In this document: positions 50,474 to 60,813 of the stretch, piece after piece | How positions within the stretch are numbered: the first letter of the stretch is position 1 | How the letters are laid out: each line of letters opens with the position of its first letter | NCBI GenBank assembly: GCA_016840085.1 | Contig: JAEOTA010000006.1 | Span: 1-64,000, forward strand | Origin: Promethearchaeota archaeon | Lineage (GTDB): Archaea; Asgardarchaeota; Lokiarchaeia; Sigyniarchaeales; SOKP01 | Direction of reading: 5' to 3' | DNA: 64,000 bases | The notes under the pieces: model-generated | Seen by the model: only the letters and a program-made list of their open reading frames with translations | Told to the model about the DNA's origin: nothing | Databases searched by the model: none | Program-made: the position numbers and the translations under genes

Positions 50474-51601
50474 ATGAGGAAAAGTAAAAGAGTAAGTCCG
50501 TTCAAATCACCAGTTCTACTCACACTAAAAGCTTATAGAAGAATTGTAGGTTATGCTATTAGATATGCTAATAATAATTTAAGTCCCGGTAAATGGCGTG
50601 AAGTATATGGAATTTTAGTTGGTTCAATAGAAAATAATTTAGAAGTAATCGTAAAAGATGCGATTCCTATGGTTGTTGGGGATAGAGCTGGTGTCAAATA
50701 TGAAAATAAACAATATGTGGACATGGCTCAAATTGATGCTTCAGTTTTTGAAAGATCAATTCAGGATAAGAGAAATGATTTTATAATTGGTTGGTGGCAT
50801 ACACATCCCGGATTCGGATTTTTTTATTCACCTATAGATCATTTAACTCATTTAGGTTATCAAATCCCAAATCCTTTTGCAATAGGTTTAATTTTTGATC
50901 ATTGTGAAAAAGGATCTAATGAACATTTTTTAGGAATAGCAGGTTTAAGACTTAAAGACCCCGACTTAGGATTAAGTTCTACTTATAACCTCATAGAAAT
51001 GAAATTTGAATTTGACAAAGAAACAATGGTAAAAAAAGCTGATAATGTTATTAAGAAAGTGAACAAAGATATGGATATAGTATTAAGAGAAATCAAATAT
51101 ATAGATGAAGTACTAAGAAAAAAGGCATTAGCTCAGCTTCAGAGAAATTATGGATTAATTCTTGTTTCAAAAAAAGATATTGTAGTGACTGATAATGAAG
51201 AAGAAGCTGAAGAGGATGAACGTTATTTATATGAGTGGGATCCTGATTTCTATAAAAAAACATTTAGAATTCCTAAATTTAGAGAAAAAATTGAAAAATC
51301 TATATCAACTGCATATGATGAATTAGATAAATTATTTGAAGAGAAAAAAACAGAAGAATATGAGTTAAAGAAACAGAAATTATCAAAGAAATTACAAAAT
51401 TCGTTAAAGAAACCTAATGAATGGTATGATAAGCTTACGGAAGATTTTTCTAAGAGAATAGAAATTATATCTCCTTATTTCAATTATTTAGACACAAATG
51501 AAAGAAAAATAATTGAATATTTTGAACAGAGAAGTTCTGAATATTATAAAATCTTGGATGTTATAAATCAACGAGCTGAATTAAATCTAGAAGATTTTTA
51601 A
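50474..51601 (+). CDS. MPN/JAMM (Mov34) metalloprotease with coiled-coil C-terminus
   Basis: EVYGILVG and GWWHTHPGFGFFYSPID (E..HxHx7Sx2D). Confidence 0.9.
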   Translation: MRKSKRVSPFKSPVLLTLKAYRRIVGYAIRYANNNLSPGKWREVYGILVGSIENNLEVIVKDAIPMVVGDRAGVKYENKQYVDMAQIDASVFERSIQDKRNDFIIGWWHTHPGFGFFYSPIDHLTHLGYQIPNPFAIGLIFDHCEKGSNEHFLGIAGLRLKDPDLGLSSTYNLIEMKFEFDKETMVKKADNVIKKVNKDMDIVLREIKYIDEVLRKKALAQLQRNYGLILVSKKDIVVTDNEEEAEEDERYLYEWDPDFYKKTFRIPKFREKIEKSISTAYDELDKLFEEKKTEEYELKKQKLSKKLQNSLKKPNEWYDKLTEDFSKRIEIISPYFNYLDTNERKIIEYFEQRSSEYYKILDVINQRAELNLEDF

Positions 51602-51758
51602 TGAGATTGTTTTAATTTGCATTTATCAAACTTTAAAAGTATGTAAAAATATTATCAAATTAAGAATTTTGGAAAAATTTAATTAAGATAAGAAATTATT
51701 AAAAAATAAGCTTCTTTTTAATAGATTATATTATTTTTTTTGCGAATGAGGTTCTTTC

Positions 51759-52085
51759 ATGGTTAATGAAACTACAATTATAATAAGAAACCGAAATGAA
51801 AAAGATAAATCAATTAAAGACGCCATATTTGCTTTTTCAGGTGGTAAGAAATCCCTTAAGATAAAGGGTGAAGGTGATGAAATAAGTACTGCTGTGGAAG
51901 TTGCAGAAATTCTAAAAAGTCGTATGTATCCTAGGTTAGAAATTGCAAATGTTTCCTTGGGAAGCCGGCCTTATTTTACAAATAAGCAGCGTGGGCGTAA
52001 TAACCGAAATTTTAGAAATAGCAAAAATAAAATAGATATAGTTTCAAATATAGCAATTACGATCCAAACTAAATCGTATTCTTAA
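51759..52085 (+). CDS. Alba-family protein (divergent)
   Basis: LKIKG.G..ISTAVEVAEILK, V.LGS, VSNI.I.I. Confidence 0.78.
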   Translation: MVNETTIIIRNRNEKDKSIKDAIFAFSGGKKSLKIKGEGDEISTAVEVAEILKSRMYPRLEIANVSLGSRPYFTNKQRGRNNRNFRNSKNKIDIVSNIAITIQTKSYS

Positions 52086-52284: not shown

Positions 52285-53106
52285 TTATTCATCAGATTTC
52301 TCGGTTTTTTTCTGTCTCCTCTTTTCAAGATATTTTTCCCAGTCAAAAGACATAATGAAAAACATCACAGTGATTGTAACTAAAAGCAAGATAGCTTCCG
52401 TTATTATACCTGATTTGCCATTAGGCTCCAAGCCTTGAGCTGTAAATCCAACTGCTACAAAAATTGGCCAGCAACAATAGAATAATGTTGTAAAGTTCTT
52501 TCCGAGCCACCCAGGTATAATACATTTCCAGAAAGGGTATTTAATCATACCTAAAGGAAGGAATAAAATATCATCTGGTAAAGGTGTTAAAGCAAACAGA
52601 AAAATATAGAAAGGTGTACGCTTCTCATTTTCAAGAATCAATTTTCCAAATCCATTAATATTACTCAAAAGATCTAATTGCCTTTCTTCTGCGATCTTTT
52701 TTGTACCATATCCTACCACGTAACCTGTAAGTTCACCTAAAGCACTACCTAAACCTCCTGCTATAGCAAGGCCTAAGATTTCAATCCAGAAAGAGCTTGA
52801 TAAAATTATTTGTCCTAAATTCAACCCAATATTAATATATCTAAGAAAGATTGAATTTGAAAGAGAAAAAAGTACAAAAGGAAATGGAACTGGAAATCCA
52901 ATTGATGCTGAACCTAAAAAACAAATTACGAGAGATATAATTATTGCCCAAAAATAATTTGTACCCTCTGTGATGCGAGTTAAATCTTGTCTCGATTCAA
53001 TTATTGCGAATTGTACATTTGGAACAAAAAGAAATAGTATAAGATATATTATAACAATTAGATAAAAAACGATAAAAACAATAATCAATTTTCTTGAAAC
53101 TGCCAT
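52285..53106 (-). CDS. DedA/VTT (SNARE-associated Golgi protein-like) membrane protein
   Basis: FPVP, G.GSALGE..GY..G, FALTPLPDD, G. Confidence 0.85.
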   Translation of the reverse strand: MAVSRKLIIVFIVFYLIVIIYLILFLFVPNVQFAIIESRQDLTRITEGTNYFWAIIISLVICFLGSASIGFPVPFPFVLFSLSNSIFLRYINIGLNLGQIILSSSFWIEILGLAIAGGLGSALGELTGYVVGYGTKKIAEERQLDLLSNINGFGKLILENEKRTPFYIFLFALTPLPDDILFLPLGMIKYPFWKCIIPGWLGKNFTTLFYCCWPIFVAVGFTAQGLEPNGKSGIITEAILLLVTITVMFFIMSFDWEKYLEKRRQKKTEKSDE

Positions 53107-53500: not shown

Positions 53501-53606
53501 TTTAATAAATATAATTCGAGTATTGATCTTTATTTTATCTTTTATTAATTTTCTAATTCATTAAATATTTGTTAAAAAAATCAAAGAATTTATTATTTAT
53601 CTTAAT

Positions 53607-53621
53607 AAGAAGATTTAAATA
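53607..53621 (+). promoter_or_regulatory. BRE/TATA promoter for the candidate ncRNA
   Basis: Purine-rich AAGAAGA then TTTAAATA at -31..-24 relative to G53645. Confidence 0.6.
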
Positions 53622-53644
53622 ATCAAATTATCATATATCTATTT

Positions 53645-54146
53645 GGACAATAGGTAGATATTGCATTGGAATTAGATACATAATTGCGGTTTAAACACCG
53701 ATTCAAATTAATTTGATTCCTTTTTTCCGACAATTTTTTTATTTTTGATTTCAAATCATTTAAAACAATCCTAGATATATATTCAATTTGATTCCCAATG
53801 TTCCTGTAGTGCTCAATATTAAAGCTCAGAAGCTTGAATTTTTACATAACTTCTGTAAAACCAGCAGAAAAATTAGCACTTTGGAGCTAAAATATAAGTT
53901 TATCATCTACGTAACGATTTAATTTATACATTCTTTATAAGAGAGACTAGTTTACATAGATAATTTAAGTTCTGCTGATAATATATTGTTGTTTTATGAT
54001 ACTTGAGACATAAAAACAGCAAGAACATACTTTCTATAAAAAATAGTAAATAGGAGCTTTGATTACTTAATTGTTTCTTAGGATTATGCCTTTCTTAAGT
54101 TCCTTTGAATCAATTTTACTTTGAATAATCGGAGCGCCTATTGTCC
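53645..54146 (+). ncRNA. candidate ~500-nt structured non-coding RNA of unknown class
   Basis: Terminal helix GGACAATAGGT/GCCTATTGTCC; three further helices form a four-way junction; several internal hairpins; G-U pairs work only on +; TATA upstream, T12 downstream; no long ORF. Confidence 0.72.
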
Positions 54147-54997
54147 TTTTTTTTTTTTAGATTTCTCAAATCATCCATAGTATCAATATCATAAAATTCT
54201 TTGTTAGTTCTTAGCCTAAATGCATATATTTTTCTACCATTATCAATCATATAATTAAATGTTTCCCAAATTGTTTTTACTCTGATTGCACCTTTTAGAT
54301 CTAAGATTACTTGGATAAATTTGTAATTGAATATAAAAATGGGAATTATTTGATGAAGGACATCATCAGAAAAAATATCTCTTATTTTTACTTGAGAAAT
54401 CCTTTTTAAAACAGATTCTGAATCGAATTTTTTGACTTCAGCATAAGAAATTAGATTATTTCTTTTATAGATTTGTTCTAATGCCTTTAATTCTATATCT
54501 CTATAAAAAACAAATGGATAATCGTGAATCAATTTGGAATTTTTAGAAATTAAGAGTAAAATTTCTTTTAATATGTCTAAGTCAAAAACAGTATCCCCTG
54601 GAATTAGTATATAGTAATTGTTACTAGTGAAGAAATTTTGGTTCTTTGTAATAGATAAAAAAGAATATAGTGGTCCTAATTTGTACTGATTCTTAGCATC
54701 GATTATTATCAAATTTTTTTGTAAGGAATTATTACTTTTTTTTAATGTTGAAATAAAATCTCGAATGGTATCTCCTAAATACCCTATAACAACTGCTATT
54801 TGCTTTATTTCTAAATCGATTAAATTATTGATGGTATGATTAATAATCGAAATATTATTTAGTTTTTCGATTTTAATTAATGGTTTTGGTAAGGATTTTG
54901 TAATTTCCTTAAGTCTTTTCCCCTCTCCAGCACATAAAATGATAGCATATAATTTTTCTTTAAAATCATTCTTTAGTAATGACAATCCTATTCCCAT
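54116..54997 (-). CDS. nucleotidyltransferase family protein
   Basis: AIILCAGEGKRL....PKPL, GYLG, GD, DIDT..D; exact start uncertain (overlaps map). Confidence 0.82.
   Translation of the reverse strand: MGIGLSLLKNDFKEKLYAIILCAGEGKRLKEITKSLPKPLIKIEKLNNISIINHTINNLIDLEIKQIAVVIGYLGDTIRDFISTLKKSNNSLQKNLIIIDAKNQYKLGPLYSFLSITKNQNFFTSNNYYILIPGDTVFDLDILKEILLLISKNSKLIHDYPFVFYRDIELKALEQIYKRNNLISYAEVKKFDSESVLKRISQVKIRDIFSDDVLHQIIPIFIFNYKFIQVILDLKGAIRVKTIWETFNYMIDNGRKIYAFRLRTNKEFYDIDTMDDLRNLKKKKDNRRSDYSK
54147..54158 (+). terminator. oligo-T archaeal terminator
   Basis: 12 consecutive T immediately after the closing helix of the candidate ncRNA. Confidence 0.65.
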
Positions 54998-57229: not shown

Positions 57230-57309
57230 AAATCACACGAAATTTCTTACTTAATTAAATTTTAAAAGGAAAAAAAGAATAAAATCTTTTGGTTTCTTAT
57301 CTATTACTT

Positions 57310-58077
57310 ATGGTAAATTTAAACTGGAAAGGAAAGATTGAAAATAAAATAGAATCAAGTGATTCAATTCCTTTCTTTATTAAAGATATTTTTCTATCTA
57401 ATCTAAATAGTCTAGAAACTAGGAATGAATGGTGGAATCTCTTGATATTGGGAGATAATCTTTCAACATTGAATTCACTATTGGATAATTTTGCCGAAAA
57501 GATAACTTTAATTTATAGCGATCCTCCATTTGCAACAGGTGGAGATTATAACTTAAAAATTCTTGTAGGAGAAAATAAAGAAATAATAACTGATTTAGCT
57601 TATGATGATAAATGGAAAGATGGTTTAGATTCATATATAGAATTTATGTATAGCCGTTTAAAATTAATGAAAAAATTGCTATCTCAGAATGGTTCAATCT
57701 ATATTCATTTAGATTGGCATGTTTCTCACTATATTAAAATTATTATGGATGATGTGTTTGGTCCTGAGAACTTTAGAAATGAAATTATATGGGCATATCC
57801 TGCTGCTTCAGCTAGAACTAAAAGATTTTTTATGAGATCTTTTGATGTAATTCTATTTTATACAAAATCTGAAGATTATATTTTCAATGATGATCCTAAT
57901 ATCTATATGGAGTATTCAGACAGGGTAAAAAATGCATTAAAGAAAGATGAAAAGGGCATATTCTATTACAGAGGGGGAAGTCATAATGGAAAAAAATTAT
58001 CAAGAAAAGTTTATGTAACTAAAAAGGGCATTTTTCCTCGTGATGTTTGGAATGATATCAAGAAGATCGAAAATTAA
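57310..58077 (+). pseudogene. amino-DNA methyltransferase (beta class, Mod-like), C-terminally truncated
   Basis: GDNL, IYSDPPF, GSIYIHLDW, F.NEIIW, P.DVW; ends before the TQKP and FxGxG SAM-binding motifs. Confidence 0.82.
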
Positions 58078-58188: not shown

Positions 58189-60813
58189 TCAATCAGATGA
58201 ATATCTCGTTATAAATGATTGATTAATTTTATTTAATACTGCCTGAGAGATTGGATTCCCTTCAAGAATTAGATATTTTAAGTTTTTTAATCTAAAAATC
58301 GAGTCTGGAATCTCTTTAATTAAATTCCATGATAAATCTAAAAATTCTAGTGATGTAAGGTTTCCGATGCATTCAGGAATGATTTCAATATCGCAATACG
58401 CTAGAGATAGTTCCTTTAAATATTTTAAAGAACATAAGACATCAGGAAAAACTCCAAAACTCCCTGATTCAAGTGAAATATAAATACTTATAATATGACC
58501 TTTTTTGTTGATCGTGTAAAATGCTCCAAATTCAAAATTATAAGCATTCTCTTCTTTTTCTAGTTTATCAAAGTATATTCCCATTATTTGTAATACTCCT
58601 AAAACACATGCTTCAGAGGGAACCACTCCTTCATGGAAATATTGCATCGAATACCTTTTTTTAGCTATTGAGAATACTTTTTCTGGAATATGAGTTAATC
58701 CTTTACCGTTGATATAAAGATGTCTTAAATGGTGTAAGGAATTTAATGACTTTGGGAATTTATCAATACAAAATCCCTCTATGTATCTTAATTTGGATAA
58801 TAAACCAATAGATTCTGGTATTTCATCAATATCCCAATAATGTAATTTGATCCCTATCACATGCTTATCCTTAGATTTTGCGTATGCGATATGAGATGCG
58901 CCATCATCTCGCTTCAATGCCCATAGTGATCCAGAACACCAATTTCCACTTACCCCAATTTCAATATCTATATCACGATTATAGTAATATGACTTTTCAT
59001 TCTCCATTGATATGGCTTGTAAATCTAAGAAAAATCGAGCTTCATCAATACATATATCATAAAATTTCGCATATCTTTCTAAGATTTGTGTTTTCAATGC
59101 TGTATAGATGTCAGATTCTAACTCATCTAAAATAGTGAATAATGAGATTATAATTGTTGCAGATTTGACATTTTGAATTGTCCACTGTAATATTTCAATA
59201 CTATTTATTGGAAAAAGATTAATTAATGTCTTAACGGCAGCAGATCTTACAAATTTATGTTCCTTTGATAATAATATATTCTTAAGAAAATCAAAATTTC
59301 TCTCATCTTTTAAAGCAACTCTTTCGAGAAATTCAATACATCTTGTCTTAACAAAAATGGAATTACTTGACTTAAATAAAGAAATCAATTGGTTCGAAAC
59401 CTCTTCTTTACTTATCTGATTATCTAAAAACCTCTTGAAAATATTGCTTGGTGTTAAAGGTAGTGTATCAATTATTTTCGGTTTAATTCTTAATGAAATT
59501 TTATCTGATTCTATGTTAAGGGGGTTCCCTGTAACATCTAAAGATGTCGATTTATTCAATCGAATAATTGATGAAGGAACCTCTTTAAAATTACAGTGTT
59601 GAATATCAATTATATTTAAGGAATGCAAATTTTCAAAAGTGTCTGGAAGAGAATCTATTAATTTACATCCGCCTAAAATTATTTTTTGAAGGGTATTTCC
59701 TAACTTTCCAATACTTTTTGGAATGCTTTTTAATGAGATACAACCTCTTAAATTAAGTTCTTTCATAGATTTTAAATCTCCTATACTCTCTGGTAAAGAA
59801 TTAAGGGAATCACAAAAACTAAAATCTAAAACTTCAAGTGAATCCAATTGACTTAAACTCTCTGGTAAGTCTTTTAAATTTTTCCAGAAAGCTAAATTTA
59901 GGTGTCTTAGAGTTTTCAAATTTCCTAAATTTTCTGGTAATGAAAATGCCCTTCTACATAAACTTCTAATTTCACTCCAAGAATTTATTGTATGAGTTCC
60001 CTTAGCCATTGAAATCAAATCTTTATCATATTCTCCTAAATCGAGAGTTTCAAGAGATTGTAAATTCCCTATTTCCTCAGGTATAAATTCTAATGATTTG
60101 CAACCACTCAAGTTCAGAGTTTTTAACGATTTTAATCTCCCTATCGACCATGGTAATTCTTTTATTGGAATATTTCTCAATTCAAGAGAACAATTGGAAT
60201 TTCCAATCAAGTTTAATGCCTCAAGTGATTCAAGATTTCCAATACTCGCAGGCAAAGATTTCAATGAGCTTGTTCCAATAAAATTTAAAACTCTGAGATT
60301 TTTCAAATTTCCTATGGTTTCAGGTAAAGATTTCATATAACCTGTTATTTTTAATTCTTCAAGGGCATTCAATGAACCAATACTATCTGGTAATGAACGT
60401 AAATTAGCGCTATCAATTAAATTAAGGACTTTTAAAGATTTTAAATTACCTAAACTTTCTGGTAATGAATGTAATCTATTGCAATCAACATATAAACTTT
60501 CCAAATGAGTTAAATTTCCAATAGAATCGGGAATGCGCTTCAACTCTTTTAAATTCAATTCCTTTATGTGACCTTCTCGAGCAATAAATCCCATCCGCTT
60601 TTTTTGTACAGATTGATTAAATCTATCTGTAAGAAAGGAGCCAATTGTCTTATGTAAATATTTAGGTAATTCTTTGGGTAAATTGATTTCGGTTGGGGTC
60701 CACTCTTCCCAAAATCCGCTCATATCTTTTATATCAAGGTTAGAGATAGATTTGCCTAAAATAATCTCTAAATCTGAAAGAAACTGTTTCTCTTGTCTAC
60801 ATATCTGATTCAT
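58189..60813 (-). CDS. leucine-rich repeat protein with central HEAT-like segment
   Basis: Many LPESIGNLxxLxxLNL repeats in N- and C-terminal blocks; helical VRSAAVKTL region between them. Confidence 0.92.
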   Translation of the reverse strand: MNQICRQEKQFLSDLEIILGKSISNLDIKDMSGFWEEWTPTEINLPKELPKYLHKTIGSFLTDRFNQSVQKKRMGFIAREGHIKELNLKELKRIPDSIGNLTHLESLYVDCNRLHSLPESLGNLKSLKVLNLIDSANLRSLPDSIGSLNALEELKITGYMKSLPETIGNLKNLRVLNFIGTSSLKSLPASIGNLESLEALNLIGNSNCSLELRNIPIKELPWSIGRLKSLKTLNLSGCKSLEFIPEEIGNLQSLETLDLGEYDKDLISMAKGTHTINSWSEIRSLCRRAFSLPENLGNLKTLRHLNLAFWKNLKDLPESLSQLDSLEVLDFSFCDSLNSLPESIGDLKSMKELNLRGCISLKSIPKSIGKLGNTLQKIILGGCKLIDSLPDTFENLHSLNIIDIQHCNFKEVPSSIIRLNKSTSLDVTGNPLNIESDKISLRIKPKIIDTLPLTPSNIFKRFLDNQISKEEVSNQLISLFKSSNSIFVKTRCIEFLERVALKDERNFDFLKNILLSKEHKFVRSAAVKTLINLFPINSIEILQWTIQNVKSATIIISLFTILDELESDIYTALKTQILERYAKFYDICIDEARFFLDLQAISMENEKSYYYNRDIDIEIGVSGNWCSGSLWALKRDDGASHIAYAKSKDKHVIGIKLHYWDIDEIPESIGLLSKLRYIEGFCIDKFPKSLNSLHHLRHLYINGKGLTHIPEKVFSIAKKRYSMQYFHEGVVPSEACVLGVLQIMGIYFDKLEKEENAYNFEFGAFYTINKKGHIISIYISLESGSFGVFPDVLCSLKYLKELSLAYCDIEIIPECIGNLTSLEFLDLSWNLIKEIPDSIFRLKNLKYLILEGNPISQAVLNKINQSFITRYSSD

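Follow-up and report, generated by a model that had tools for sequence, protein, structure and literature searches.

Archaeal RNase P RNA (RF00373) is a stand-alone, stable RNA of 300–500 nt whose ends pair as a P1 helix, and archaeal SRP (7S) RNA (RF01857) has paired ends, its own promoter and a U tail. The RNA gene described here, from a Lokiarchaeia genome, shares these properties with both; besides them and rRNA, no archaeal RNA as large as this one is known to us that occurs throughout a family. The bacterial OLE, GOLLD and ROOL RNAs are, like this one, large, independently transcribed and of unresolved function, but the present RNA is archaeal, chromosomal, family-wide and without a match in Rfam, and it is far less conserved in sequence, with a much more variable interior. 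tmRNA and the bacterial Y RNAs show the same succession of an acceptor-like terminal helix and a D-loop-like UUGG; unlike them, this RNA lacks a T arm, CCA and a tag ORF, and the base after its P1 is variable. By analogy, not homology, eukaryotic 7SK and telomerase RNA also combine a conserved end-pairing helix, a 3′ hairpin with a U tail, a short conserved motif close to the 5′ end and a fast-evolving interior, and 7SK RNA has alternative folds; in contrast to them, our RNA gives no sequence match and holds no repeat template. The likeness to 7SK, telomerase RNA and OLE is one of layout only. OLE is a protein scaffold (PMC9723947).

The window, that is, the whole 64,000-nt stretch of DNA that was analyzed and to which all positions refer, contains a gap of 615 bp between a divergent cyclophilin-like gene (PF18050; 53111–53500, minus strand) and a convergent nucleotidyltransferase gene (PF00483; 54116–54997, minus strand), the last 31 nt of which overlap the 3′ end of the RNA. 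We have hardly any doubt that this gap holds a genuine gene for a large non-coding RNA, at 53645–54146 on the plus strand (502 nt without the U tail). An archaeal promoter (53604–53621, plus strand) consists of a purine-rich BRE (53604–53613) and the TATA box TTTAAATA (53614–53621), the latter at −31 to −24 relative to the 5′ G at 53645, and a T12 terminator tract (54147–54158, plus strand) directly follows the 3′ strand of P1. The BRE is conserved. From one Lokiarchaeia family, 104 full-length homologues of 352–632 nt were extracted; 98 of them have the first T of the TATA box 30–31 nt ahead of the 5′ G, and in 95 a run of seven or more Ts occurs within 22 nt past P1. The promoter elements, 5′ G and T12 tract named in the initial annotation are thus all in place, and they are conserved. 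A scan for sigma-70 promoters is irrelevant here, the host being archaeal. No conserved ORF was found in the RNA (the longest ATG ORF has a median of 15.5 aa across homologues), and its GC content is 27.7%, compared with 29.5% for the genome. That the RNA is independently transcribed, structured, non-coding and encoded on the plus strand is supported.

Family-wide, only the promoter, a P1 of 10–12 bp (the length seen in most copies), the CAUUGG motif after P1, a 3′ hairpin stacked on P1 and the U tail are kept. The 5′ strand of P1 (53645–53655, plus strand; core GGACAAUAG) pairs with the 3′ strand at 54136–54146 (plus strand; core CUAUUGUCC), which in the window gives 11 bp, ten Watson–Crick and one G-U. 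The hairpin, P4 (54056–54135, plus strand), has a base formed by 54056–54064 and 54127–54135, with two conserved U-G pairs, and an upper stem formed by 54071–54083 and 54100–54113; it adjoins P1 in 79 of the 104 minimum free energy (MFE) folds. In the alignment used for testing helices (32 sequences from the three alignable genera), P1 is 96.5%, the P4 base 93% and the P4 upper stem 82% paired, which upholds both helices of the initial annotation. RNAalifold, run on the full alignment, retained only P1 and the P4 base. Pair 4 of P1 is C-G in 80 copies, U-G in 14, U-A in 5 and G-C in 2, and pair 10 is U-A in 47, G-C in 37 and A-U in 10; such compensatory and G-U changes link sites that lie 350–630 nt apart. 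Covariation counts are inflated by the kinship of the genomes, and the covariation therefore rests on few independent events.

The 3′ strand of P1 overlaps the end of the nucleotidyltransferase gene and holds its TAG stop in 51 of 102 homologues, and this stop-codon overlap may account for part of the conservation of that strand. Overlap between the 3′ end of the RNA and the reading frame is found in 85 of 99 homologues, the linkage to the nucleotidyltransferase gene is kept in all genera, and the doubled U tract in the interior has the look of an aCPSF1 terminator (PMC8716108). These features would suit regulation in cis: as an antisense or attenuating transcript, the RNA would act on the convergent map/nucleotidyltransferase operon or on the divergent gene, with the internal U tract ending transcription under certain conditions only. 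We consider this improbable: the overlap mostly amounts to only 6–60 nt, there is no downstream gene on the same strand to attenuate, and the conserved interior helices would be left unexplained. Moreover, the overlap is not tied to one frame, all three being represented, and 14–18 homologues keep P1 without it; since it uses every frame and 18 copies do without it, coding does not explain P1.

On the plus strand, the folding energy of a 511-nt stretch gave z = −3.36 against 100 shuffles, one of which was as good, and on the minus strand z = −3.65; averaged over 25 homologues (12 shuffles each), z was −2.8 on the plus and −2.2 on the minus strand. With values so similar on both strands, folding energy supports structure and not strand, and the z-score check put forward in the initial annotation succeeded for the former and failed to separate the latter. 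The strand is fixed as plus by the conserved U-G pairs in P4 and the U-G intermediates in P1, in line with the earlier argument from G-U pairs. By comparison of the homologous sequences, P1, P4, the gene and its strand are established. Sequence changes that keep pairing by G-U and not by A-C weigh against a DNA-level element (an origin, a partition site or a domesticated inverted-repeat element) whose transcription would be incidental. The stretch is single-copy, AT-rich and syntenic with inverted ends, and CATTGGAA resembles half an ORB, as such an element might; yet it is bounded precisely by the promoter and the terminator, it has no second copy, and we regard the idea as very remote. A replication origin in particular was rejected, with the ORB core in 2 of 104 copies and five cdc6 genes on other contigs, although the ORB test is a weak one, ORBs not being recognizable beside the cdc6 genes either.

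The base of the 3′ hairpin contains a second copy of AAUAG (54049–54053, plus strand), through which the inner half of P1 can be displaced. The inner part of the P1 3′ strand thus has two competing partners, the 3′ hairpin and the 5′ end, and the junction would be able to slide. Of 66 non-redundant RNAs, 45 have AATAG within their last 140 nt, where approximately 13% would be expected; four or five genera lack the internal copy. In one subgroup, inner pairs of P1 have been abandoned and outer ones added, so that its P1 is shifted outward.

The interior has no nucleotides that are invariant family-wide, and its length varies almost twofold. All pairings drawn in the initial annotation (P1–P4 and the minor helices) are present in the window and in the predicted MFE fold. 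Its P2, P3 and P3-domain helices, however, are 55% paired over the 32 homologues and no better than shuffles (84/500 to 376/500), and they do not hold as family structure. As P2 and P3 fail the shuffle controls, the four-way junction that had been built on them is the fold of one sequence, specific to the window, and other helices covary instead. A revised model, composed of P1, a 5′ arm (UUGGAA/UUCCGA), a central arm and P4, is 80% paired and outperforms all of 500 shuffles, both in the number of cells paired and in covariation score, as well as every slid control; the covariation check hence speaks for P1, P4 and the revised helices and against P2 and P3. The central arm (53800–53887, plus strand), which closes a variable insert and takes the place of the former P3, is formed by GUUCC/GGAGC (53800–53804/53883–53887) and AGUGCU/AGCACU (53808–53813/53875–53880); it is 76% paired, with double changes in all six pairs of the inner helix. 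A small, genus-conserved CGGU/ACCG hairpin (53687–53700, plus strand) is 62% paired over the three genera, with double changes in three of its four pairs. The arm at 53970–54010 (plus strand) carries the motif GAUAC-NN-GAGACA (53998–54010) opposite a UCUUGU consensus; its helix is 84% paired in the three genera, without an advantage over shuffles, and the motif is missing from the most distant genera.

GAGACA, together with AUUGUCC, loosely recalls P7 of group I introns. This would be a point in favor of a large ribozyme, either one that founds a new class or a paralogue, much derived, of RNase P/MRP RNA or of a group I core. The size, the paired ends, the multi-arm layout and the duplication of RNase P RNA in the same genome would also be in keeping with such a molecule. 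GAGACA, however, does not covary with the 3′ strand, the RNase P elements CR-I and CR-V are absent, and seven diverse copies have no match in Rfam. Since the interior lacks an invariant core, we hold a ribozyme to be highly doubtful; of the earlier alternative between ribozyme and RNP scaffold, the scaffold is the reading that we favor. A group I intron core as such was rejected, there being no host gene in addition to the missing covariation and the missing Rfam match.

Within the 5′ half, an internal U tract (53734–53747, plus strand) ends in an Sm-site-like AUUUUUG and resembles an aCPSF1 terminator; archaeal termination is driven by U4 tracts (PMC8716108). Most homologues have a U run at +70 to +105, with flanks that vary, and one genus is without it. 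Judged by its sequence, the tract might serve as an Sm-type site or might terminate transcription conditionally.

The motif (UG)CAUUGG(A/U)(A/U) at 53661–53671 (plus strand; core 53664–53669) recurs throughout the family, with CATTGG in 97 of 104 RNAs from 11 genera, and is likely to be a recognition element. The linker between P1 and the motif varies from approximately 1 to 10 nt. No single family-wide internal partner was found: near the 3′ end the mean z was −0.06, and in a fixed register beside P1 the motif formed 6.4 pairs versus 5.7 in the background, mostly G-U, with near-perfect pairing in one genus. In three genera it can pair with 53725–53733 (82% paired, mostly G-U). Four shortened copies from the host's own genus (L033, L034, L053 and L060; 352–386 nt) are natural deletion variants: CAUUGG and a large part of the 5′ arm are gone from them, and the promoter, P1 and P4 are kept. 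Since these four copies do without it, the motif is not strictly essential.

Conservation of the CAUUGG sequence without a consistent internal partner would also be expected of a trans-acting guide or chaperone RNA, in which an exposed CAUUGG(U/A) pairs with pre-rRNA, rRNA or tRNA ends in the manner of U3 or snR30. The common variant AUUGGUUU can form 8 bp with 16S rRNA near position 1240, and UGGN is complementary to the NCCA of tRNA. The own genus, however, has UUGGAAU although the 16S site is unchanged, so that covariation is lacking. No CCAAUG was found in the 16S or 23S rRNA of the one family member whose 23S was examined, and a CCAAU near the 16S and 23S 5′ ends of one genome, tried as a U3-type target, is not conserved in 23 16S leaders. 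An 11-mer common to the RNA and the 16S leader was likewise discarded, there being no profile homology with the 5′ ETS. The lack of boxes in the consensus speaks against a C/D, H/ACA or U3-like guide, and snoRNA matches were at chance level (E 2.6 or higher). On balance we think a guide unlikely, though it deserves to be kept in mind. The 16S rRNA leader itself (L271–L297, approximately 230 nt upstream of 16S) is strongly conserved across the family in sequence and hairpins and is a candidate structured 5′ ETS.

The RNA stretch is single-copy in the 4.68-Mb genome (BLAST and nhmmer). BLAST found the RNA in approximately 30 of 36 genomes of the own genus, and in other genera it was recovered by walking from the flanking gene. 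A pattern of promoter plus 5′ end matches once in the own genome and in 103 of 134 family genomes, some of them by chance and with variant copies missed; in a search over 400 genomes of the phylum it stays at about background outside the family, including in 265 other Asgard genomes. Scanning all GTDB species with this pattern yielded hardly any records from outside the Promethearchaeota (Lokiarchaeia); accession SOKP01 was among those returned, and we infer that the host family is GTDB family SOKP01. Bacterial and viral matches were dismissed as chance, the 3′ end being absent. A model of the 3′ domain gave no match in 11 outside genomes, and the same model misses three genera inside the family. 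The map/nucleotidyltransferase locus of approximately 15 sister-family genomes holds no such RNA. Outside the family, then, the RNA is not found by these insensitive searches; its detected range is one Lokiarchaeia family, for which the earlier label 'Asgard-specific' was too wide.

The expectation of a syntenic locus was borne out, as 99 of 104 copies have the cyclophilin-like gene on one side and the nucleotidyltransferase or map gene on the other. In one genus the cyclophilin-like neighbor has been replaced, and the RNA stays with its right-hand neighbor only. A MITE or IS remnant was rejected on account of the single copy and fixed locus. Three copies are atypical: L212 is approximately 790 nt long, L244 has a gap of approximately 1.4 kb with the 3′ P1 strand not found, and the 3′ end of L124 is degenerate or interrupted. 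In one sister-family genus (G050 and G054), a tRNA-Arg(CCU) gene stands where the RNA gene would be, on the same strand (L155:4600–4680 and L173:5340–5420). It likewise starts with GGAC, which may reflect an origin at a tRNA site or a coincidence.

The RNA family is apparently undescribed: Rfam at permissive thresholds returned nothing above chance for the window and six diverse homologues, as the initial annotation had anticipated, and a literature search (including few subscription papers) found no description of it. The exclusion of RNase P RNA, SRP RNA and tmRNA made in that annotation also stands, the first two being encoded elsewhere in the genome and tRNA/tmRNA features being absent. 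For RNase P RNA, CR-I (GAGGAAnnUCC) and CR-V (ACAGAA..GCUUA) are missing from the consensus and there is no P4 pseudoknot; in the own genome RF00373 matches only contig C66, with 130 bits. Two RNase P RNA genes stand there in tandem (G000:C66:15325–15981, L001; 130 and 91 bits), of which the upstream copy, approximately 85% identical, has lost the 3′ strand of P4/P1 and looks like a truncated duplicate. SRP RNA was rejected because the helix-8 motif for SRP54 binding is absent, and RF01857 matches contig C88, where the motif is present; the CCUGUAG of our RNA is reminiscent of the Alu UGU turn of SRP RNA.

A 5S rRNA with insertions failed the tests for loop C (CCGAAC) and the loop E core, and the 5S gene was located on contig C60. 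This 5S gene is circularly permuted, so that the 3′ half comes first and leads through a UUCG loop, by which helix I is closed, into the 5′ half; the whole lies within an inverted repeat (G000:C60, approximately 52940–53075; L135:1395–1530); L138, L139 and L140 show the same, with a different break point in G006, and 5S genes of sister-family genomes are normal. A tRNA or tmRNA was excluded by an A at position 8, where a tRNA has U, and by the lack of a conserved T loop (UUCRA) and a tag ORF, and ARAGORN, allowing introns up to 3 kb, made no tRNA/tmRNA call at the locus. In the 98.8% complete genome as a whole, ARAGORN gave only 7 intron-less tRNAs, or 13 calls when one intron was allowed; most tRNA genes are possibly multi-intron, split or unassembled. 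Y RNA was rejected because Ro60 (TROVE, PF05731) was not found in this 98.8% complete genome. A telomerase- or retron-type template RNA was set aside, since RVT_1 occurs in only 9 of 46 family genomes (a divergent reverse transcriptase could escape this search) and the linker varies; the own genome encodes a reverse transcriptase at G000:C74:13766–14365 (L299), in a frame of 487 aa.

Three metatranscriptomes contain contigs 96–97% identical to the window within 53685–54081. The contig of one relative ends at 54156, another joins 5′ and 3′ blocks, and contigs from RNA libraries span the internal U tract (53734–53747). The contigs are unstranded and shallow and stem from runs chosen with this stretch, and uncovered flanks are no evidence; they give a weak hint that the RNA is expressed in close relatives. 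As to the plus-strand transcript foreseen in the initial annotation, contigs of relatives do fall inside the RNA, and being unstranded they do not give its strand.

The reading that we favor, tentatively and at somewhat below an even chance, is that the RNA could be a stable protein-binding scaffold with a conserved end module and a sliding P1/P4 junction. It would be a stand-alone gene of housekeeping type, on which, judging from the conserved signals, the polymerase would start at G53645 and stop in the U tract. Comparison shows that the ends pair as a 10–12-bp helix of near-fixed sequence with the 3′ hairpin stacked on top. Since the end module and CAUUGG are the sole parts under family-wide selection, they would most likely provide a docking site for a core protein or complex, and the interior arms may serve as a flexible scaffold, by analogy with telomerase RNA or 7SK. 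The sliding of the P1/P4 junction might be a folding aid, or a two-state switch that binds and releases a partner. Protein partner, switch and cellular role are what we infer; no protein partner was found for the RNA. A bolder proposal, to which we attach a decidedly low probability, is that the RNA might correspond, in Asgard archaea, to scaffold RNAs of eukaryotes such as 7SK or an Sm-ring snRNA. It would then belong to a switchable RNP by which a transcription or RNA-processing factor is sequestered or released via the sliding junction and CAUUGG, and homologues in further Asgard lineages would so far have escaped recognition.

Asgard archaea are related to eukaryotes, and one more large stable RNA in them is a pointer to a ribonucleoprotein that has yet to be described. 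With it, the question whether the Asgard lineage has scaffold RNAs of the eukaryotic style can be put to a concrete test. The minimal module (P1, CAUUGG and the 3′ hairpin) and the natural 350-nt versions make the RNA tractable for probing, pull-down and cryo-EM. At a distance of 1.6 kb from the RNA, a gene for a JAB/MPN-domain protein is followed by an Alba gene (window 50474–52085, plus strand); in eukaryotes, RNase P/MRP RNAs are bound by proteins of the Alba family. Inspection of the translation by eye indicates an 874-aa leucine-rich-repeat protein with a HEAT-like middle at 58189–60813 (plus strand), and a DNA methyltransferase-like ORF at 57289–58077 (plus strand), also recognized by eye, has an apparent early stop (262 aa).
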